A stretch of DNA of 64,000 nucleotides from Plasmodiophora brassicae (lineage: Eukaryota): contig CP145420.1 of assembly GCA_036867785.1 (NCBI GenBank), positions 1,178,001 to 1,242,000 on the forward strand, read 5' to 3'. Under the pieces are notes generated by a model. The model saw only the letters and a program-made list of their open reading frames with translations. It searched no databases and was not told the DNA's origin. Shown here piece by piece: positions 813-52,026 of the stretch (its first letter is position 1; every line of letters starts with the position of its first letter). The position numbers and the translations under genes are program-made.

Positions 813-1026
813 TGTAGTCCCGTGTCTGCAGACTCTTGACGGCACGTAATGACACAGAAACAGAATGACGTTTATCAATCGCATCGTCACGACGACGTCA
901 GCCTCGCCACGTCATCGTGCTAAATCGGGGCACGCAGTTTGTCTAAATATAGTCCAGGACCGTCAGGTCAAGTGGCAGCACGTTGATGTAGGGAACGAGA
1001 CGCTATAAATAGAGCCCCGCTCTACA
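813..1026 (-). mobile_element. 5' LTR (214 bp) of gypsy copy 1
   Basis: The minus strand reads TGTAGAGCGGGG...GGGACTACA (TG...CA with 5-bp terminal inverted repeats). Its first ~53 nt match the plus-strand LTR start at 3426. Confidence 0.8.
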
Positions 1027-2678
1027 CTGGTCGCATCGCACTGTCATGTAGAGCAACGCGCATCATGCAGATGGACGATTTGCGAGTCACTCCTCGGCAA
1101 CATCCTGAATTCAGCTGGCCGACCGAAAAGGAGATCCGCGATTCGCAACGCTTTCTGTCACGAGAGGAGAAGATCGAGGACGGGGTATACTTCGATGAAG
1201 CTGATCGTCTGTGGAAGAACGAGAGCAAAGCCGTTCTTATTCCTTGTCATCAAGACTGCAAGAGTCTACGCCTTCGAATCCTGGTCATTGGCCATTGCGC
1301 AAGAGCTGGTCATCGTGCGTCGGAAGTAACCAAGCAGATGATCACGGAGCGCTTCTTCTGGACCAAGATCAATCAGGACATTGAAGCGATGTGTCAGCAA
1401 TGCCTGCATTGCATCACGACACGCGGTGGTAAGAAAGTTCCTCGGCCGCTCGGTGAAGCATTACACGGTCACCAGCCGTTCGACGTACTCACGATGGACT
1501 ATCTCTATGTGGAGCCTGTCAGGGGCGCGGACCACAAGTACAAGTATATCCTGCTCTTGAAGGACGACTTCAGTGGTTATGTTCGTCTGATTCCATCAGC
1601 TGAAGCGACAAGTCGTGTTGCTGCGGAAGCTCTGAATCAGTGGATAGCCGATTTCGCGACGCCCGAGTACCTGGTCACGGACGGTGGTTCACACTTCACT
1701 GCAGAAGTCATGGAGGAGCTTACCCGGCTACGAGGTGTTCAGCATCACATCACAACGGCATATTGTCCGTGGGCTAACGGCACGGTGGAACGCGCGAACG
1801 GCACGGTGCTCAACGTCATGCGATCAGTCCTGAACGAGGCCCAGATTGGCACGCACAACTGGCCGTACTTATGTCCTGTTGTTCAGCATGTCATCAACCA
1901 CACACCAAGTCGACGACTCAACGGCTACGCGCCATTCACGGTTATCACGGGACGTTCACCGGAAAGCCCGCTTGACCAGATCTGGGACCCAGTAGAAAGA
2001 CAGTGTCGACGAGTACCACCGGAGGGATTCGCCAAATACGTGCAGATGTTGCAAGAGACCCTCGACGAGATCCACAAGGCCGTCGATGAAGCGAAGGCAC
2101 AGCGACATGCTGCCAATGTTGAGCAACGACGACGACGACTCAAGAGTAGTCCCTACGCATCGTTCATCGTTGGCGACTACGTGCTCAATGCCAAGCCGGT
2201 ACCAGGTCCTGCGCAGAAGCTGATAGCGCAGTGGCGGGGACCGTATCGAGTTGTCAAGCAAATCAACGAGCAAGTGTATGAGTTGGAGAACCCACTATCT
2301 GAACGACGCTTAAACGCACATACGCAACGAATTCGACGATATGCAGACGCTGACTTGAACATGACCGTCGATTTGAAGCGCCACCTTCAACACACTGACC
2401 AGCATTTGATTGTGGACGACCTATTGGATTGTCGTATCGATCGAGACACGCAAGAACTGCAAATCAAGGTATCGTGGTCTGGGTTTGATCTTGAGGAGGC
2501 GACGTGGGAACCTGCACATATCATCTATGAGGACGTCCACGAGTTAGTGCACCAGCTCATAAGACGTCTGGGAGACAATCATCCACAAGCGGAAGCTCTA
2601 CGTCGTTTCGCCCCAGCACCAAAGCGAGCGAGTAACGCGCAACGCCAGACAAAGCGGAAGCAGCGACGACGGCATTAG
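1027..2678 (+). CDS. Ty3/gypsy (chromovirus) pol 3' part: integrase plus chromodomain, 5'-truncated by copy 1
   Basis: HHCC zinc finger (GHCARAGH...CQQCLHC), DDE core (TMDYL, VTDGGSHF, NGTVERAN), GPY/F motif (WRGPYRV) and chromodomain (VSWSGFDLEEATWEP). The frame stays open upstream of ATG 1065 to the LTR junction. Confidence 0.93.
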
Positions 2679-4387: not shown

Positions 4388-4877
4388 CCGCATCACAACC
4401 AACATCACGACTTCCGTTACGAATACAAAATTACGATCGCCATTCATGCATGTGGACGCGTCGGTCCAACGCCCGCGCCTGGCCGCTGACGAAAGCTGAC
4501 AAACGTAGAAAAGAGGAGAGAGAAACCTATGATAGCGTGGTCGAAGGGATGCCCCCAACGACCTTAATGGGCATTTGCTATACATCCATTCAATAAATAC
4601 AAAATCGCAGTCACCCATTCGATGTGGACGCGAACTGATTGCCGTGGGTCGTGGCCATGCTTCACGACCGAGGACCTCCTACGGAGTCTCCTTGAAAGGC
4701 CTCCTCAGGAGGTCCGCTGTTAAAATGTTCTACACGAGCTCGGCGTCAACCTTTGAAAGAGTATTTTGCACACTACTCCGTGGGAGACTCCAGCCGCAGT
4801 CTCCACCAGAGGTCCGAGACGTGAAACCTCCCACGGAGCCTCCGTAGGAATGTTCCCCGCCAAAAACCTCAGGAGAA

Positions 4878-7538
4878 TCTCAACTTTTGGCCGTGTACTC
4901 TGGGCAATTTACGTCTACGATGCACCTCTCGACGAAAACTCTAGCAACATATACGTAGATGACATCGCCTCTTGGGCCACTGGGAGAACGAAGAAACAAG
5001 TGAAGCGCACCCTACACAAAAAGAACGCGGCACTAATGAAATGGTGCGATGCCAACCATATTAAAATCAACTGGGACAAGACGGTAATATTATTCAACGA
5101 GTACAACCCGGACGACGCTCTTAAAACAAACAAAACCAGTATAAGGACAGCACCGGAGGTCCTAGGAATCACACTAAGGGCTAATGAGGAAAACAAACAC
5201 GGTATGATGATGATCGACATTAATGGTGTAGCGGCCAGCATAACACAAAGAAGCAAAGTAGCCAGGTCGCTGCTAAAATACAACTTCCCAATTAAAATAT
5301 ACTGTACCACCAAATATGCAAAGGATTCATCGGGCAAACTAAATTACTACATGCCGATACTTGGGGCAGAAACAGGTAAAGAAATGAAAAGTGCCATCAA
5401 GCCCCTAGAAACAGCTTATAACGAGTATATGAGGACATACTCAGGAGCGTTCAGACCCACACCAATTCCCCTTCTACACGCAATGACTGGATTTCCGCTA
5501 TTACGAGACGCGATATGCACAAGCGCTACCATGACAGTCCTGTCAGCAATTGCCAATGACACCCTGCTAGGTAGAGAATACAGCACTTGGGACGGTGAGG
5601 GTGATGGATGGAGCCGAATAGTGGGGAAGACCCTCAACGAGGACATGCCCAGAACGTACACTGAGGTACATCCAAAAGTAAAGCTAAGTGAACAGACGCT
5701 GGAAACACTCTATCAGGTGCAATGCCACACGAGTTCTAGAGCAGAAGCGATCGAAAAACACCTCACAGACGAGCTACTACCCCAAGAATCACCTAAGCCT
5801 GACCCCTGGGGAAAACGCAGGAGCAGCTGCGCTCGTCATAGACAACAGGGAGTACCCGCCCACTGAAACAGTGAGAGAAACCGCTTTAAACCCGGTCATC
5901 GTTCGTTCCAGCTACGAAACAGAACTCATTGCATTAGGGTGCGGACGGGACGTTGCTATCGATGAGAACTTCAACGACACCAAAGTACACATCTTCTCGG
6001 ACTCCTGATCGTGGATCAAACAGCTGCAAGCGCTCCCAACAAGGCCAAAAAGGGTGCACGACGAGGTCGCAGCTAATGCTGACAAGCTGGCCAACCTAAT
6101 AGAGAATAACAACGAGGTACACGTACACTTCATCCCAGCCACGTCCCAAAACCAGACGAAGAAAATACGGACACAAGTTCACAGAAGACCGAATGCTCAG
6201 AGTCGTATGTAAACACGTACACTGACAGGAAAACCCCAACCAGGCGAACAGGTATCAGAAACGGTCAAGAACAATACCCAGGTAAAGACAGTAGCAGTGA
6301 CGGCTCAGACACTGACCAATCCTCGACTCGAGACGACGAAAACCCGCCAATCCACCCCAGATCGCAGATGGAGAACCAAACACATGCAGACAAAAGCAAA
6401 GCCAGTGACGGCACGAACCACACGGGCCAAAGGGCAGAAGAAGAGGACAACTCAAACACATCGCACGACTCACTACCTACGCGAAATGCGTCATTGACTG
6501 AGGAAAGCAGCGAGGATGACTCGGTGACAGACTCGGAGAGCAGAAAAAGGATCAAATACCTGGAAATAGGTCATAATGAGGAGATTGACAAGCTTGCCAA
6601 GCGAGCAGCAAAGAAAGGAAAATGTGGGGTAAACCACACACCATTCCTGTCCTCCTACAAACTCAATTTAAGACGACTAGCAGCCGAGCGGCTAGAGGAC
6701 TACCTAAAAAATAACATCAAAGACAGCAAGTGGGACGACTACCCGAAACGAAAACGATACATAGACGACGCATGGGACATCGCGTTCAACAGCAGAAAGC
6801 TACATACGCACCCACTTCTCAACAGAGCACGATCCGGGCACAGTGCAGAGCGTAAACACCTACACAATATTGACAAAAGAATGTCCGGAGAATCAGACCA
6901 ATGCAGGCACTGCAACAGTGCTGAAGAGACTATCGAACACCAACTGGTACATGCACTGCACCGCACTACGCCTCAAACTACAACACGAGCGCGAAACATA
7001 CGAACGATTATGGAAAAACTCCTTCACAGAAGCTCTATGGAAGTACGAAGACGAAATGACAAGAATACTCAAATCCGAAAAATCCAAACGATGCATATTC
7101 ATCTAATGACAAAGGAACAGGCCGAGGGCAGAAGAACAGCACAAGGTGCAGAAGCGCTGCGCACCGCCAATGCAACCCCGCCTTTGTCCTGTGGGTGCCC
7201 GACAGCCCAGTAAGTGTCGTTTAGGACTGATCATAGGGGGTCTGGGCGCCTGTAAAAAGGTGACCACCTCCACAGGGGGGTGGATGTCGTCAGTAGTGTA
7301 GGCCGGTCAACCGAAGTGAGGAAGACCAATCACCTGCGAACCTTGGAGGGCTCGATGAGCCCTTAGACTCGCCCCGGAGCCGCCACCCTGCAAGACCCCA
7401 GCACAGAGGTGACAGGCCGGCTCTGCCAGGTCGGGGAAAGTGAGCGTTCTGCGAACTTCCCTACGGTCCTCGGATCCGAGAACGAGGCGCCTGCGTTAAA
7501 AGCGCGAAACACAAATAAACTTAACTTCAACTTAACTT
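4878..7538 (+). mobile_element. Degenerate 5'-truncated LINE (RT C-terminus, RNase H, CCHC-like knuckle)
   Basis: RT motifs YVDDIASW and KINWDKTVILF. RNase H motifs SSYETELIAL, HIFSDS and GHNEEIDKLAK. Knuckle CRHCNSAEETIEH. The element has frameshifts and stops, an A-rich coding strand, and ends in AATAAA plus an (AACTT)n tail at 7514-7538. Confidence 0.85.
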
Positions 7539-44703: not shown

Positions 44704-45320
44704 GATATGCGCTAATCAATTCGGTACTGGGGACATCTCTGTAGCATCTCCCTTGAGGAGTGATTCGGAAACATGGAGGCGAATGCGTTTTAGTAGAGGA
44801 AACCGGACACCTCTCGAACCCGATCTGTAGTCGGTTGGCATATGGGTTCGGGAGCGCTCAGCGCCCAGGCCGGGTACGTACCGGGTATGGGATGCGGTTC
44901 AGAGGAGAGCGCTACGCGCGTCTGTGCCCCCTCCGGCAACAACGACGACGACGCCGACGTCGCTGTCCAGGGGCCTGCCCTAGCTCGCAGCGTTGGCGCC
45001 GCTCCTCGTCCAGGGAAGGCTCCCGACGACACCGGTCCTGCCGAGCCGTTCACTGGTCGCTGGCGTCGGGCCGCTCACGTGCCGCCGGCGCCGCCCGACG
45101 CCAGAAGGGCACCTCAACGATCAGACAACGGGTGGGCGGCGCCCGCTAGTCGTCAGGCGTGACGCACCCGATGAACGACCTGTGGCTCTACCCCGATACG
45201 CAGGCGGGAGGTCATCGCCATGTTCGTCGTCTGTATCGATGGCACCGAATGTGCCATACTGCTGATGCGGCTGGCGGGCGGGTCGATCGTGAGATGGGGA
45301 GGGTCGGCGCCGGCGCCAGC

Positions 45321-48300
45321 CTAGCGGAGCCCGGCCGTCGTCGACCCGGACGCCAGTGCGCTCGGCACGACGGGCGTCGCCGGCGTGACCCGGTTGATGC
45401 CCGACGTCAACGGGAGCGCCGACGTCGTCGTTGCCCCCTTCGCCTTGCGCTTGGAGACGCTCAGCAGGTCCCAGGCCTTGTCATTGTTCATCTCTGCCAT
45501 GCGACGTTAGCAACGGGCGTTCGTCGAACGCGGGCCGCGCACCGACCCTTGTCGTAGAAGATGATGTAGATCTTGGTGAGCACGACGCCGGTGATCGTGA
45601 TGACGACGCTGAGGAACAGGCCGACGGCGCGGACGGCCAGCGCCACGTCCTGCTCGTTGATCAGGAACGAGATGACGAACGCGCCCGTGCCGAACGTCGC
45701 AATGTTGTAAATGGAGAAGGCGATCTTCTTCGATTCTGTCATGTCGACGGCGGTGGTCAGGCGCGCCTGATCGGCGGGTGGTAATATCACCAGGTCAGAC
45801 GCACCGTTGAACGCGTCGTGCACGTTGCGCGTCTGGATGCAGAGGGCGATACCGGCGATCAGGACGGCGAACTTGGCCACGATCGACACGGTGGCGAACG
45901 CCCAGACGGAGCTGCCGCCCGACGACACACACTGGTGCCTGCTGACCGCATTGCCCAGGTCGACCGACGCCAGCGTCAGCGGGTTGATGACCTGTTGGCG
46001 CGACGACGATCAGTACTGACGACAGGAGCGCCAGGGCATGCGTCATCGATTGCGATCCAACGGTGCGCCTACGGTCCAGGCGACGAGGATGAGGAGCTCC
46101 AGGGACGTCATCAGGCCGACGATGCGGAACAGGGTCTCGTCGGACACGGCCTTGACGGTCAGGTTGTTGGCCTCGAACGCCTGGAACAGGGAAGACACCC
46201 TGTGCGAGCACCGCACCCGGGTCAGTACTGGCGCCTGGCGAATAACGCGCAACGTCGATGATCGTCAGGTACCGGTACGTCTTGGCGAACAGGGCCCCTT
46301 AAAACGCTGTTAGCCCGCACATCTCGTTGCAGGCCCCGACGACCAATTGGGACGTACCGAACATGAGCGCCCATCCGATGGAGATGGCCCAGATGTTGAC
46401 CATGCAGGAGGTGGAGCTCAGGGAGTAGGGCACGCCGACGGACACGTCGAGCGCCATCCAGACGCCGCACGTCAGGGCAATGATGGCGCCGACCAGCATG
46501 ATCTGCAGGAAGCGCGGCGCCGCCGCCTTCAGGATCGGCTCGCGGCTGTACCGCTGGACCAGGGCCTGCGACACGCGTGCGTCCACAGTCAGATCAACCT
46601 GGGCCGGCTCGTTGGCAACGGGCACGCGCGTACGTACCATGAGGACGAGCGCGTAGACGATTCCGATGATGGCGAGGGCGATGCTGAAGCCGGCGACGCC
46701 GACGGAGATGCCGAGGAACGTGGGCGGCGGGTCCAAATTCAGCACGAACGTCTGCTGCGACACCTTGCTGGAGCGGATCATGAGCGCGTCGCCGACGGTG
46801 ACGGCCTTGAGCGTGATGCGCCCGCTCTGGGCGATCAGGATCGGCCCCTGGTAGAGTTCGGCGGCGTCGGACGGCTCGCTGCCGTCCAGCGTGAAGTAGA
46901 TCTTCGTGCCGCCCGTGACCGTCGTCAGGTTGACCCATACGGGTTTCGTCGAGATCAGGTCGGTCGGCGTCGTCGTCGTCGTCGATGACGATGCGGTGAT
47001 GTCGGGCGGCGCCGCCTGGTGCAGGTAGACCTGGACGCGGGCCGTCTCCAGGCGCTGGAGCATGGCCCGGATCGCATCGCCCGTGTAGTTGTAGGTCAGG
47101 AACTTGACCAGCTCGGGCGTGTAGACGGCTTTGAAGTCGGCCAGGACCTCCCTGTCGCCGACGCCCGTGATGTAGTCGGCGTTCCTGAGCATGTTGGCCC
47201 CCTTCAGCGTCAGCGGGTCCGATATGCTGCTGAACGCGTTGACGTTCGACGGGATGCGAATGTCGCCGGCCTTAACTCTCGCAATGGACACGTTCGTCGA
47301 CACGAGGTAGGCGAGCCAGGCCTCGGCCAGGGCCGGGTTCTGCGACGTCGCCGAGATGACCAAGCCGTCTCCGGGCGCGTTCTCCCCAACGGCCAGGCCC
47401 GGGTCGAAGATGGGGAACTGGAAGAAGTCGAAGCTATATGTGGCGGGCGCGGGTCGTCAGTCAACGCTACCGACACGACACGATGCCCTGACGTACTCGC
47501 TCATGTTGAACCCGGCGGGAGCGCCCCAGCGCACGAAGTCGCCGCAGAAGGCCATGGCGGCCGTGCCCAGGAAGACCGGGTCCGGCGTCGACCACCCGTT
47601 CACGATATCCTGGTACCGCGTGTACTTGTCCAGGATGCGACGCCACTCCATGAACACGTCGTACACGTCCGGCGACGTCCACGGTTGCTGCCCTGCGCCG
47701 CGAAGATTCCCGTGAGTCAGTGAGTACGAACGTCTGATATTCGATATCGTCATCAGCGACGTACCGTCGAGCAGGGCCATGTGGGCGACGGGGCCGCGGA
47801 TGCGCATGTCGAAATAGTCAAAGTTGGAGATGGCCGGCCAGCCCTCGTAGTTGCCCAGGTAGATGGGCGTGATGCCCGCCGCTAGGAACGTGTCGCAGGC
47901 CGCCATCCAGTCGGCCCAGGTTTTCGGTGGGCGCACGTTGTACCGGCGCCAGACCGACGGGCGGTAGTACATCTGTCGTTGGTGGACACCGGTCAGTGCA
48001 TCGGCCAGGTCGCGTCTAGAGACACCTGACACAGACCGCCCAGTGGTACGCATCCGTCGGTACGATATACGGGTGCCCTGCACATTAGGCGGATCAGGGT
48101 ACCTCGATCGACCCGTTGTCCTGCTGTGCGCACCGTTGGCGTCCTGGCCGCCTTTCAGCATACTGGGCGCCAGCTGCTCGTACAGGTTGTACTTCTTGAA
48201 CATGGCGTCGAGGTTGCGGAAGTTGCCGTTGGCGATCAGCTTGTTGGACCCGGACCCGCCCGAGTACCTGTCCAAAGGCAGTGTGTGGTGAATACGGGCG

Positions 48301-48961
48301 ATCACCGGGCGCCCTGCAGGCCATATGATTGGTGTCGGTGTCACGACCATTGGAGAACGTCGGGCCCGCGTTGAACGGACGTGTACGATGCCGTGTCGGA
48401 TTGGATCCTGTGGGTCGCACGATCAGTGCCGCCGGGGGTGACGCCACGACCGCGCGCCGGCTGTGGCCGAACGTACTCGGCGTCCGTCGATTGCTGGACG
48501 AAGCTGACGACGGTGTTATCCGGGTACGTCGCCAGGAACGCGCTCATGTACGGCTCGTACACGGCGTACGGGCGCTTCGTCATGATCGTCATGGTGCTGC
48601 CCGTGTTGCCCAGGTTGTAGTGCCCGCCGTAGTGAACCGGGGTCGTCGTCGGCGCTTTCGTTACGACACAGTCTGACGACGTCCGATACGGTCAGCCGGG
48701 GCAATGCAGGCGCTGGGCGATGAACCCGGACGAACCTGTTCCACTGCCGCCCCATCGGCAGGTCGTCTTGCCGGTGCCAGCGTCGCCCGGGCCGATACAG
48801 CAAACGAACCCGGACCCGCTGCACGTGTCGGTCGCCACGCTGCAGGTGATCCAGTCGCCGACGACTGTCCCTGCACACAGGATATGCTCGACAGGCAGCC
48901 AGCAGCTGGCCAGAATGACGACCCGGACGATGCTGCGGCCGAGGGCGGCCTGTGCCGACAT
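45321..48961 (-). CDS. Class C (7tm_3-like) GPCR with bacterial-type sugar-binding-protein ectodomain and Fn3-associated domain
   Basis: Signal peptide. SBP-like MYYRPSVWRRYNVRPPKTWADWMAAC..F.AAGITPI.LG..WPA..FDYFDMR. Fn3-associated IYFTLDGSEP...LYQGPI. 7TM motifs PILKAAAPRFL, GWALMFG, LFAKTYR, TRNVHDAFN/ESKKIAFSIYN and TKIYIIF. Confidence 0.82.
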
Positions 48962-49319
48962 GACGACCGTCAACGTGTGTGTGTGCGGATCGTGGCTCGG
49001 TACCAGAGCGCCTCGTGCGCTTTTACTATACTCGTTAACCGCCGGGTACGGTCCCTTTTCCCTATCGGGCGCTTCCCGGCACACGAGGAGACATGTCGAC
49101 TTCCAGCATCGTCCATTGCTAGACAGGACCTCGGAGATTCGGCGTGTCTGTAGATGATATTCACGGTCGTGCCATCCAGACGAGCAGCTTGACTTCTCTT
49201 ATACCAGGGCTGGCGGTAATGTGCCTCGGCAAACGACCAGTGGCGGACGAGGAACGGGGCGGATCGCCCGGCCGAACATGATCCCGTACCGCCGAGGACG
49301 ATCGGCCCTGGAACCACTT

Positions 49320-49478
49320 TGCGCTTGGAGACGCGGAGCAGGTCCCAGGCCTTGTCATTGTCCATGTCTGTTGCAGACATCCCCACTTAGTATGTGGGAT
49401 GTTCCTGGGCGATGCACGCGACACTAGCGGTGCACGCCGACCTTTGTCGTAGAAGATGATTAGACTTTGGTGAGCAAC
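49320..49478 (-). pseudogene. Relic of a paralogous GPCR 3' end
   Basis: IIFYDK and MDNDKAWDLLRVSKRK match 45445-45583, including the intron position. Indels are present. Confidence 0.75.
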
Positions 49479-50032
49479 CAAAGGATGCGTTTCGACCAGC
49501 TCGCCTCCTACCATCAGCAATCGGCCGGGCATGACCCGGATGGGTCGACATCTACTTCCGCGTGGGCGTTGCCTGTTCTGGCCGCCACGACATCCATCCT
49601 GGGCTCGACACAGAGATGCCATGTCGGACCAGCGCGTTGTTGCTATTCGACAGGGAGCATCTCGGATCCCGCGGGGCGTGCAGTGGCCGGTTCTATTTAT
49701 ACCGAGCCGGCCGCGGACGTGGCCGCCAAATCAGTGGTCGACAATCGCCTGGTGTACGTACTGCTTGCTTGCCTGGCATGGGACAGTGCAGTTCGAGCCC
49801 CGCGCCGACCGCCTTGCGTGTACCTGCGGCCGGCGGTGGACTCCGTGGCAACTATATCCGGCTGTCCGTAGAGTCAGTCTCAGGAAACTGCGCCACTGGG
49901 CCTCCGTCGCCGGACTGATCGGGGCAACACCACCCATCGTCCGTCGTCGTGCAGGTCGACGACTGCCCCGAACGTCATTTGCAAATCGGACGCGGAGCGC
50001 GCACATCGTCGCCGCTCCTCTATCGTATCGTC

Positions 50033-51748
50033 ATGGCTATTCAATCGGGCACGAAGAACGCGCCCGCCCTGGAGCACGCATCTGCCTCCAACACCATCTC
50101 CAGTGTCGTTGTCGACAACGGCGGCGCGCCCGACAAGACGGCCGGCGCTGCACCAAAGACGGTCGGCCTCGTCGACGGCATCGTCTTCGTCCTGTCCTGC
50201 ACGGTCGGGTCCGGATTGTTCTTCGCCCCTGGTGTCTCGGCCCATGCGCTGGGCGACCCGTGCGCATCGCTCCTGTCGTGGTTGGCCGCCGGCGTGCTGT
50301 CGCTGGCCGGCGCCTGGTGCTATGCGGAGCTGGGCACGACGTTCGTCTCGGCCGGCGCCGAATCGCACTACTTCAAGAAGGCGTTCGGGCCGGCCACGTC
50401 CTTCTGCTTCACCTGGTCCACGTTTCTGATCGCGGGTTCATCGGCCTGCTGCGCGATCGCCATCGTCATGGGCCAATACGTCATTGCCATCTTCACAGAC
50501 GCGACCAGCCCGTACGTTTCCCTGTCTCTGGCGTGATCCGTAAGGTTGACCTCTGACCGGCTGTTGCTGTCCAGGTTGAGCACGCAATTCATTGCCACTG
50601 GTGTGCTGGCATTCTTGGCCATAGTGAACATGATCAACCCGTCGTATGTGCTGATGCTGAACCGGTTCAACGTTGTGTGCAAGGTCCTGGCCGTCGCCAT
50701 CGTCATTGTCGGGGCGATCATCGCGGCCGCCATGGGCGCCACGCCCGCGAACGCCTTCATGGGCCAGTCGTGCTTCGGGCCGCAGACCGAATGGGCATCC
50801 TTCGGCAAGGGCATGGTATTCGCGCTGTTCGCCTTCTCCGGGTGGAACTACTTGAACCCGCTGACCGCCGAGATGAAGGACCCGCAGCGTGACGTCCCAA
50901 GGGTACTTCTGTGTCGCATGTGTGCCATCCCTCCGGCCAACGCCTATAGTTCTGATGTGCGATCGTTTCCGCTCGGTAGGTGTACACGATCGGTATGCTG
51001 ACGACGATCACGCTGGCTCTTGGCGTGAACGTCGCCTTCTTCGTCGTGCTGCCGTTCGACCAGTTGACGAACAAACTGGCGGGCCCGTTTGCCGAAGTCG
51101 TCGATCCCGCGTCTGGCATCCTGAAGCCGATCCTCTGTCTGATGATTTCGTTCTGCTGCCTCGGGTCGTGCAACGGCATCATGATGGGGTCGTCCAGGAT
51201 CATTGCGGCGGCCGGCGAGAACGGCGACATCCCGGCGTGCTTCAGCTGGAAGACGAAACGCCACGGCACGCCCTACGTCGCCCTCATCGCGTTCGCCGTG
51301 TACACGAGCGTGATGGCGTTCGCCATGAATCTGGATGATACCGTCGACTTCTACACGGTCGGCCAGTGGACGTTCTTCGTGCTGATCGGCATCAGCATCT
51401 ACGTCCTCCGGAGGAAGTTCCCCGATGTCCGACGGCCGTTCAAGGTATCGGTTCGTTTCCTCAGGTTGATTCCGGCGCTGACGGACGCTCGTACAGGTAA
51501 TCGGATACCCTGTTGTACCGGCAGTCTTCGTTGCTGTCAGCGCGTACGCCGTCGGTGTCACATTCGTACCGGGTGGGTCGGAGGTGCCCGTTGTCGCGCT
51601 GGTCGGCGTTGCGATCATGGCCGCCGGGTTCGGCGTCTACTACGTCCGACGTATGCACCGTCCTGCCAAGGTTGCCGACGACGCGTCGACGGCCGGCGAC
51701 AAGGTCCAGGTCGAGCTAGCCACCCCGGCTGCCGCTGTGGAAGGCTAA
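50033..51748 (+). CDS. LAT/APC-family amino-acid permease, 3 introns
   Basis: CTVGSGLFFAP, CYAELGT, FAFSGWNYL..EMKDPQRDVP, GTPYVAL and RRPFKV. Confidence 0.92.
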
Positions 51749-52026
51749 GCACAACCCCCCCGAGCGTCGGACATTATTCATAATATATTTATGAATACAC
51801 ACACACGGAATTGCAGACCAGCATTCATGGCTGCGGCAACGGGTACGTGTTCCTGTTCGCCCGCCACGTGGGCAGAGACGTCCTGCGGGCCGCCCTCATC
51901 ATTGCCTGGACGGCGACGGCAGCAGCAGCAGCCGCAGCTCGGAGTCGGACCAAGTCCGTGAGTGGCGGGGCGTTGCAGCTTCATTGCGCGGGGTGCGACG
52001 GCGCAGCGCCCGTGTCGTCGTCTGCG

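Follow-up and report, generated by a model that had tools for sequence, protein, structure and literature searches.

Fusions of SBP_bac_1, CHB_HEX and 7tm3 domains have already been described in Plasmodiophora brassicae (Rolfe et al. 2016, BMC Genomics 17:272, PMC4815078, Fig. 3 legend). The gene examined here lies on the minus strand of a 64,000-nucleotide (nt) stretch of contig CP145420.1 of the same species (the window, by which we mean the whole stretch of DNA that was analyzed), and very probably it is one of the four 'sugar-type' members of that published set. As far as the legend and section 13 of that paper describe them, the fusions share with the present gene the species, the Pfam architecture SBP_bac_1 + CHB_HEX + 7tm3 and the single transcript. 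Four sugar-type and four phosphate-type members are given in section 13, while the conclusion of the paper counts seven in all. In its treatment of these genes the paper names the fusions transporters and claims that they are absent from other eukaryotes. However, the evidence presented below favors a receptor with relatives elsewhere.

Comparable domain combinations have been noted in other organisms. SBP_bac_1 was reported on 8 Allomyces macrogynus G-protein coupled receptors (GPCRs) of the Glutamate family, and OpuAC, LysR_substrate and PBP_like_2 on other fungal class C members (Krishnan et al. 2012, PLoS One 7:e29817, PMC3251606). The Allomyces receptors resemble the protein described here in carrying 7tm_3 after a type-II domain of the same Pfam family, and the absence of NCD3G is noted in that report. 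However, Allomyces belongs to a different eukaryotic supergroup, and the passages of the report that deal with these receptors do not mention Fn3_assoc. Combinations of 7tm_3 with OpuAC or Bmp are conserved across distant eukaryotes, according to the section of de Mendoza et al. (2014, PMC3971589) on this family. The fusion is therefore already known, both for P. brassicae and elsewhere, and the novelty implied by the initial annotation of this stretch does not stand, since the P. brassicae class was published in 2016 and type-II domains on class C GPCRs in 2012 and 2014. The value added here is small, and consists of same-architecture relatives outside P. brassicae, a cyclase-linked version of the sensor cassette, a tree with the fused binding domains on one branch, a corrected gene model (921 amino acids (aa), with intron 12 removed) and a reading of the product as a receptor instead of a transporter.

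The metazoan GABA-B receptor (GB1/GB2) provides the nearest solved seven-helix bundle; it likewise has no NCD3G, and the motifs of transmembrane helices (TM) 3 and 6 and the cysteines align. GABA-B receptors carry a type-I flytrap of the ANF/LIVBP-like kind, are obligate heterodimers and have a coiled-coil tail, whereas the P. brassicae protein combines a type-II solute-binding protein (SBP) domain with a beta-sandwich spacer and a short tail. A type-I flytrap is typical of animal class C members but is not required by the Pfam 7tm_3 family. On the sensor side, the closest system is AcbH of Actinoplanes sp. (PDB 3oo6-3ooa), the top match by both sequence and predicted fold. Its PDB title calls it a bacterial solute receptor, and it is the binding protein of an ATP-binding cassette (ABC) sugar importer. 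However, AcbH is a free protein of lipoprotein/periplasmic type that serves an ABC permease, while the P. brassicae domain is tethered to a GPCR. In animals, the ANF-receptor domain occurs on receptor guanylyl cyclases as well as on class C GPCRs. The same logic of one binding-protein cassette on 7tm_3 and Guanylate_cyc outputs applies here (the latter in the relative P0046, see below), yet the animal domain is type I and the P. brassicae-type cassette is type II.

We interpret the product as a class C, GABA-B-like GPCR that uses a type-II SBP as a sugar sensor and activates a G protein, and assign this interpretation a probability of about 0.72. The corresponding public protein (P0001, 944 aa, 100% identical over exon 8) bears the NCBI name 'G-protein coupled receptors family 3 profile domain-containing protein [Plasmodiophora brassicae]'. 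SBP_bac_1, Fn3_assoc and 7tm_3, three families for which the initial annotation had proposed an InterPro check, are all present in P0001, and all of its Pfam matches exceed the curated cut-offs. From the N-terminus the order is signal peptide, Cys-rich stretch, SBP_bac_1, Ser/Thr linker, Fn3_assoc/CHB_HEX_C_1, 7tm_3 and a short tail. The span originally proposed, 45321..48961, runs exactly between the start and stop codons of one minus-strand gene. In the model, which was built by reading the sequence, the start codon is at 48961, the TAG stop codon at 45321 and the frame between them is open, with 13 GT-AG introns of 53-81 nt each.

Because exon 8 alone spans the region from the SBP C-lobe to TM1, the fusion is evident at the DNA level, independently of transcript data. 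Contigs of three sequencing runs from three studies (X2, X3 and X9) and of a DNA run (X15) were placed on positions 45100-49400; X2, X3 and X9 are putatively RNA, because introns are missing from their contigs. All 13 introns are skipped among the contigs of these three runs, with CT..AC ends on the plus strand, and none is skipped in X15; the joint 48265/48346 is present in X2 and X3 only. One X9 contig (record 15) carries SBP exons (47764-47972, 46637-47433) together with seven-helix exons (46357-46564, 46071-46198, 45887-45989), and one X2 contig (record 10) extends from the 5' untranslated region (UTR) to exon 9. Intron 5 occupies 47973-48036 in the contigs, the same as in the public model. 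The SBP and seven-helix domains are thus encoded by one spliced message. Single coding regions for the SBP-7tm3 genes are also what the transcriptome shows according to section 13 of Rolfe et al. (PMC4815078).

It is scarcely conceivable that a secreted SBP gene and a GPCR gene, or bacterial contamination, were merged here by annotation. The account that Rolfe et al. give of the e3 genome annotation, in which SBP-7tm3 genes were unannotated or split in two (PMC4815078), can be read in that direction. However, one exon leads from the SBP C-lobe to TM1, spliced contigs bridge the SBP and seven-helix exons, and at least five database proteins have the same domain order. The SBP part is interrupted by six introns, as is the seven-helix part. 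GC content at third codon positions (GC3) is 0.93 for the whole coding sequence, 0.81 for exon 1 and 0.92-0.96 in each of the three domains, and overall GC is 0.62-0.65 over 44-50 kb of the window, around the gene. The six SBP introns, the uniform GC3 and the continuity of exon 8 argue for a long-resident eukaryotic gene, neither contamination nor a merged annotation.

The sensor domain is recognized by SBP_bac_1 (PF01547) over residues 112-399 (E-value 3.6e-22, 80.2 bits against a cut-off of 26). By sequence, AcbH heads the solved chains (3oo6 and others; residues 123-409 align at E 4.1e-29), ahead of ABC-importer proteins that bind xylan, chitin oligosaccharides, xylobiose and glucose. Where a ligand is named for an SBP chain at E <1e-6, it is always a sugar or oligosaccharide; two rows are labeled just 'ABC transporter'. 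A structure was predicted for P0001 from a 49-sequence alignment, with a mean predicted local distance difference test score (pLDDT) of 78.8; over most of residues 100-500 pLDDT is >90, and an intact two-lobe fold is predicted. When the model was compared with the PDB by Foldseek, AcbH came first (TM-score 0.85-0.87 on the target, E 5e-21). The 50 Foldseek matches listed were only sugar SBPs or maltose-binding protein (MBP)-fusion chains, with no ANF-type receptor among them, and ANF_receptor gave no Pfam match in P0001 at E up to 0.1, so that the protein shows no type-I flytrap. The ectodomain is a type-II sugar-type binding protein of the kind found in bacterial ABC importers, not an ANF flytrap, which bears out the initial assignment.

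It appears distinctly improbable that the SBP has lost ligand binding and now serves for structure or adhesion, on a receptor that is orphan or constitutively active. This view has no direct support, although one relative (P0158) shows that the SBP can diverge greatly. The 80 bits on SBP_bac_1 and the intact two-lobe model at pLDDT >90 point the other way, as do 15 positions (including W264, F270, D271 and R276) whose conservation reaches 90% or more in the 49-sequence alignment, free-standing SBPs included.

Between sensor and membrane lies the chitobiase/Fn3-associated domain foreseen by the initial annotation. Fn3_assoc (PF13287) matches residues 521-583 (E 3.8e-12, 46.6 bits against a cut-off of 23) and CHB_HEX_C_1 (PF13290) residues 517-574 (E 8.3e-12, 45.3 bits against a cut-off of 22). 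The region is predicted to be all-beta, with strands at 498-585 and a pLDDT of ~90. In the Ser/Thr linker before it, pLDDT dips to 73 at residues 501-510.

The membrane part matches 7tm_3 (PF00003) over residues 604-804 of P0001 (E 7.1e-29, 101.7 bits against a cut-off of 33.5), in agreement with the GABA-B-like seven-helix domain first proposed. Seven hydrophobic segments at 604-854 follow a predicted extracellular N-terminus with a signal-like segment, and the helices and a hairpin in extracellular loop 2 (ECL2) are seen in the model. GABA-B and metabotropic glutamate (mGlu) receptors are the nearest solved chains for this part, the best being those of GABA-B2 (E 8.8e-17). One relative, P0035, aligns across the entire bundle with human GABA-B2, with K-T-W-R, the TM6 motif N-[DE]-S-K, P-K-L and the TM3 and ECL2 cysteines in register. 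In a six-member family alignment no variation is seen at C673, C760, K694, R697, F800 or N801. For activation, GABA-B and mGlu receptors rely on the TM3 and TM6 motifs.

The 7tm_3 match of P0001 breaks off at residue 804, having covered the profile (251 positions) up to position 198. The retained intron 12 falls in the TM5-TM6 loop and breaks the conserved TM6 motif; once it is spliced out, AFN is followed directly by ESK and the class C motif is whole again. The intron is skipped in contigs of all three putative RNA runs, and its 23 residues are missing in the 5 aligned 7tm_3-carrying relatives that span this point. The public protein model is wrong in keeping intron 12, and the 921-aa form is P0001 without the 23 aa that the intron encodes, being otherwise identical. 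This spliced form keeps the TM3 K-T-x-R motif, the TM6 F-N-E-S-K motif and the cysteine pair of TM3 and ECL2; since intron 12 interrupts the TM6 motif, only in this form is that motif whole. Exon 13 alone gave no match to solved chains at E up to 1.

The published alternative is a nutrient transporter, in which the tethered SBP would hand sugar to the seven-helix domain for import (Rolfe et al. 2016, PMC4815078). In bacteria the SBP family does feed transporters, and the same paper, in its account of these genes, reports SBP-7tm3 expression early in infection and in galls, both of which would suit uptake of nutrients. However, the membrane part is a 7tm_3 bundle (101.7 bits) with GABA-B and mGlu receptors as its nearest solved chains, the TM3 and TM6 motifs are kept, and no BPD_transp_1 or ABC ATPase gene lies nearby. 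A transporter is therefore highly improbable: with its activation motifs the bundle is that of a GPCR, and no machinery for transport accompanies it. Moreover, we know of no 7tm_3 protein that transports solutes.

The initial annotation had named two outcomes that would speak against a sugar-binding receptor, namely SBP and seven-helix exons on separate transcripts, or an ectodomain with an ordinary ANF-receptor fold. Neither overturns it, because the fold is that of a type-II SBP and a single transcript carries both parts. For a receptor of this kind, a small carbohydrate (a mono- or oligosaccharide, possibly a polyol) would close the two lobes of the SBP. From there two routes to the membrane may be considered. 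The closed, tethered SBP might dock on the extracellular loops, much as SBPs of bacteria bind to their transporters and chemoreceptors, and the flexible Ser/Thr linker would allow this; alternatively, there might be a dimeric rearrangement of the kind known from class C receptors. A homodimer prediction for two copies of residues 95-590 gave neither support nor a verdict. In either case the bundle would activate a heterotrimeric G protein, by which the parasite would be informed of sugars in root exudate or host cytoplasm.

A metagenome scan returned 598 matching stretches, 234 of them encoding relatives, and 80 were kept. All 80 match SBP residues alone (up to 502), and no fused SBP-7TM locus was found among them. 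Operon context was taken from five loci (L002-L005 and L007) that are among the seven best-ranked and encode proteins 29-33% identical to the P. brassicae domain. BPD_transp_1 permease genes follow the SBP gene in all five, with two such genes in four loci and one before the contig end in L002, whereas the P. brassicae SBP does not stand free beside an ABC permease but is fused to 7tm_3. LacI regulators are located upstream of the SBP gene in three of the five loci, and genes nearby encode an FGGY kinase, Fe-ADH, transaldolase, a fucose-isomerase-like protein and DUF6937/DUF6938 proteins. Judged from this neighborhood, there are hints of a monosaccharide or polyol as ligand over a polysaccharide fragment.

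Several points weigh against the sugar-receptor interpretation. Apart from the transporter label in the passages of Rolfe et al. cited above, the RNA nature of runs X2, X3 and X9 is our own deduction. TM7 reads T-K-I-Y in P. brassicae but P-K in the relatives and GABA-B2, and the seven-helix model is based on just six related sequences, with pLDDT of 51-93. For the sensor, the nearest solved SBP is only ~20% identical in the structural alignment (range 17-20%), because of which the sugar cannot be named. There is also a weak match to UgpB (E 0.0015), an example of the non-sugar binders that SBP_bac_1 includes as well. These last observations suit a class C receptor whose SBP senses a non-carbohydrate ligand, such as a phosphorylated compound, an organic acid or a plant metabolite, as do polyol/ketose-type enzymes, rather than glycoside hydrolases, in the nearest bacterial operons. 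Such a ligand is nevertheless unlikely, since the SBP chains listed in the sequence search (those named at E <1e-6) and in the fold search bind sugars or oligosaccharides, and the bacterial relatives adjoin LacI-type regulators (3/5 loci) and sugar-type permeases.

An exhaustive HMMER search of 1.84 billion representatives found 6326 proteins with E-values of 0.001 or lower, 76 of them at 1e-30 or lower, and 16 of the best 150, picked by length or extent of match, were scanned with Pfam. P0034 (942 aa, 35% identical) contains SBP_bac_1, CHB_HEX_C_1/Fn3_assoc and 7tm_3, and P0032 (42% identical), P0035, P0158 and P0167 have the same domain order with partial or diverged SBP parts, so that at least five further database proteins share the SBP-to-7tm_3 order. 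The SBP part of P0158 is strongly diverged (no SBP Pfam match, end branch of 4.86 in the tree described below). Two eukaryotic clusters in which SBP_bac_8/SBP_bac_1 and 7tm_3 occur together come as leads from the ESM Atlas (scores 0.90-0.91). In the first, of 151 members, Chytridiomycota is the commonest phylum and 41% carry 7tm_3; the second has 57 members, most commonly Bacillariophyta, and 7tm_3 on 100%. Because of these relatives and clusters, the uniqueness to P. brassicae claimed earlier does not hold. Word-indexed protein searches found no fused relative, but they score only candidates sharing most words and so say little; none of the 27 other proteins matched by the word-indexed search with exon 8 carries PF00003 or PF01547.

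The HMMER search also returned a protein with a different output. P0046 (1054 aa) carries SBP_bac_1 and Fn3_assoc, followed by a single membrane segment and Guanylate_cyc (E 2.1e-26), and P0039 (579 aa) is a fragment of the same kind. Going by their sequences, both are receptor-cyclase cousins of the SBP-GPCR family. A quick maximum-likelihood tree of the SBP domain was computed with 56 rows known by sequence and rooted at the mid-point; it has long branches. P0029, P0192, P0196, P0197, P0198, P0201 and P0202 had been dropped beforehand as weak or partial. In this tree P0046 and P0039 group with the fused GPCRs, and 8 fused proteins lie on one side of a branch (Shimodaira-Hasegawa-like approximate likelihood ratio test (SH-aLRT) 98), apart from the 48 others. 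The 'independent assembly' proposed by the initial annotation thus stands in comparison with animal ANF-type receptors, but not within this family, since the cassette is common to the relatives and falls on one branch of the tree.

Tentatively, the SBP + Fn3_assoc ectodomain may be a portable cassette of single, ultimately bacterial origin that protists have wired to at least two outputs and that may signal by docking. The two outputs would be the class C bundle (this gene, P0034, P0035, P0032 and P0158) and the single-pass cyclase (P0046). If this were true, the cassette would mirror the use that animals make of the ANF-receptor domain on class C GPCRs and receptor guanylyl cyclases, and docking would differ from the flytrap-dimer rearrangement of class C receptors.

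A further member of the HMMER set, P0137 (1003 aa), has an SBP of the same clade, then a membrane segment and then a C-terminal half of 450 residues. Nothing in Pfam matches this half at E up to 0.001; one motif in it may be reminiscent of HET domains.

Coordinates of the gene and its parts are collected in Table 1.

Table 1. Parts of the P. brassicae SBP-7tm_3 gene, in positions of the window
Feature	Position	Strand	Remarks
Whole coding region	45321..48961	minus	14 exons, 921 aa once correctly spliced
Exons 1-4	48961-48736, 48672-48477, 48407-48348, 48267-48134	minus	
Exons 5-8	48077-48037, 47972-47765, 47692-47497, 47433-46638	minus	
Exons 9-11	46565-46358, 46297-46273, 46199-46073	minus	
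Exons 12-14	45991-45805, 45735-45547, 45493-45321	minus	
Exon 8	46638..47433	minus	Uninterrupted; SBP C-lobe, linker, Fn3_assoc and TM1
Intron 12	45736-45804	minus	69 nt, in frame, stop-free; retained in P0001 as 23 residues
5' UTR	48962..49476	minus	Contains spliced 57-nt intron and degenerate exon 13/intron 13/exon 14 copy
Signal peptide	48872..48961	minus	~Residues 1-30 (predicted); hydrophobic segment at 6-29
Cys-rich stretch	48668..48877	minus	Residues 29-77; spans intron 1
Type-II solute-binding domain (SBP_bac_1)	47025..48601	minus	~Residues 100-490; 6 introns
Ser/Thr/Pro-rich linker	46959..47024	minus	Residues 491-512; from sequence
Fn3_assoc / CHB_HEX_C_1 beta-sandwich	46746..46946	minus	Residues 517-583; from Pfam and model
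GABA-B-like seven-helix domain (7tm_3)	45554..46703	minus	Residues 598-862 of the 921-aa form
Cytoplasmic tail	45324..45553	minus	Residues 863-921; pLDDT <50

The N-terminal stretch contains seven cysteines (C29, C40, C47, C54, C55, C68 and C77). The initial annotation had quoted strings from it as a small Cys-rich module, and these strings are indeed found in exon 1. However, this module is the one weak part of that annotation. No Pfam family and no PDB chain matches it, as the exon gave only chance-level matches (Pfam E 0.13, PDB E 0.88); it is modeled at pLDDT <50 and is absent from all 8 aligned relatives. On these grounds we treat it as an orphan, presumably lineage-specific addition. An upstream in-frame ATG (~49283, reached after splicing of the 57-nt UTR intron) was considered as the start codon and rejected. 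The ATG at 48961 is taken as the start because GC3 of the 5' extension is 0.62, against 0.93 for the coding sequence and 0.81 for exon 1.

The 5' UTR intron (49148-49204, GT-AG) is documented by a joint at 49147/49205 in X2, X3 and X9 but not in X15. Further upstream, at 49319-49476 on the minus strand, lies a degenerate copy of the gene's own exon 13/intron 13/exon 14 junction, ~3.9 kb upstream of the original and with 72% identity over 159 nt (blastn). Contigs of X2 and X9 stop at 49369, and their loose ends match the window just upstream, because of which the copied intron seems still to be spliced; the X3 contig continues unspliced through it. A partial tandem duplication may have left this junction copy behind. 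An upstream tandem paralogue was also considered and rejected, as tblastn of P0001 on the window finds only a 17-aa tail fragment and the upstream space is taken up by a divergent amino-acid permease gene.

Two differences between strains were seen in the SBP exons, a C>G change at 47317 in an X2 contig and a 3-base deletion at 47571 in an X3 contig, both absent from DNA run X15. One 10.3-kb contig of X9, with a mean depth of 529, covers exons 1-3 and the 5' UTR (48268-49400) and continues upstream, while the remaining X9 contigs on the gene have depths of 8-10. Because the depth is a mean over the whole contig, the high value probably reflects a highly expressed upstream neighbor joined in assembly.

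Genes in the remainder of the window encode the divergent amino-acid permease, an ion channel, snurportin, an ENTH protein and PRP8, and a retrotransposon is also present. Neighbors of this ordinary eukaryotic kind are in keeping with a native gene. No BPD_transp_1 or ABC genes were found among the 23 long open reading frames (ORFs) of the window that were scanned. The permease gene (49919-51783, plus strand) starts ~1 kb from the receptor start codon and matches AA_permease_2 on two ORF pieces (E 6.1e-10 and 6.7e-18). At 987-2678 (plus strand) an ORF contains an integrase core, an integrase zinc-binding domain and a chromodomain, and represents a chromovirus-like retrotransposon remnant or copy. 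The segment 4001-8000 is unlike the rest of the window, with a GC of 0.50-0.535 and a strong AT skew (+0.25 and +0.32). Long plus-strand ORFs at 4757-5866 and 6110-7213 gave no Pfam match.

P. brassicae lives as a parasite inside the cells of brassica crops and cannot be cultured. The recognizable sugar-binding module makes this receptor one of the few P. brassicae sensors that are open to ligand screening in vitro. More generally, the family implies that a type-II binding protein can take the driving role for a class C bundle, which raises the question of how activation is transmitted from such a domain to the membrane.

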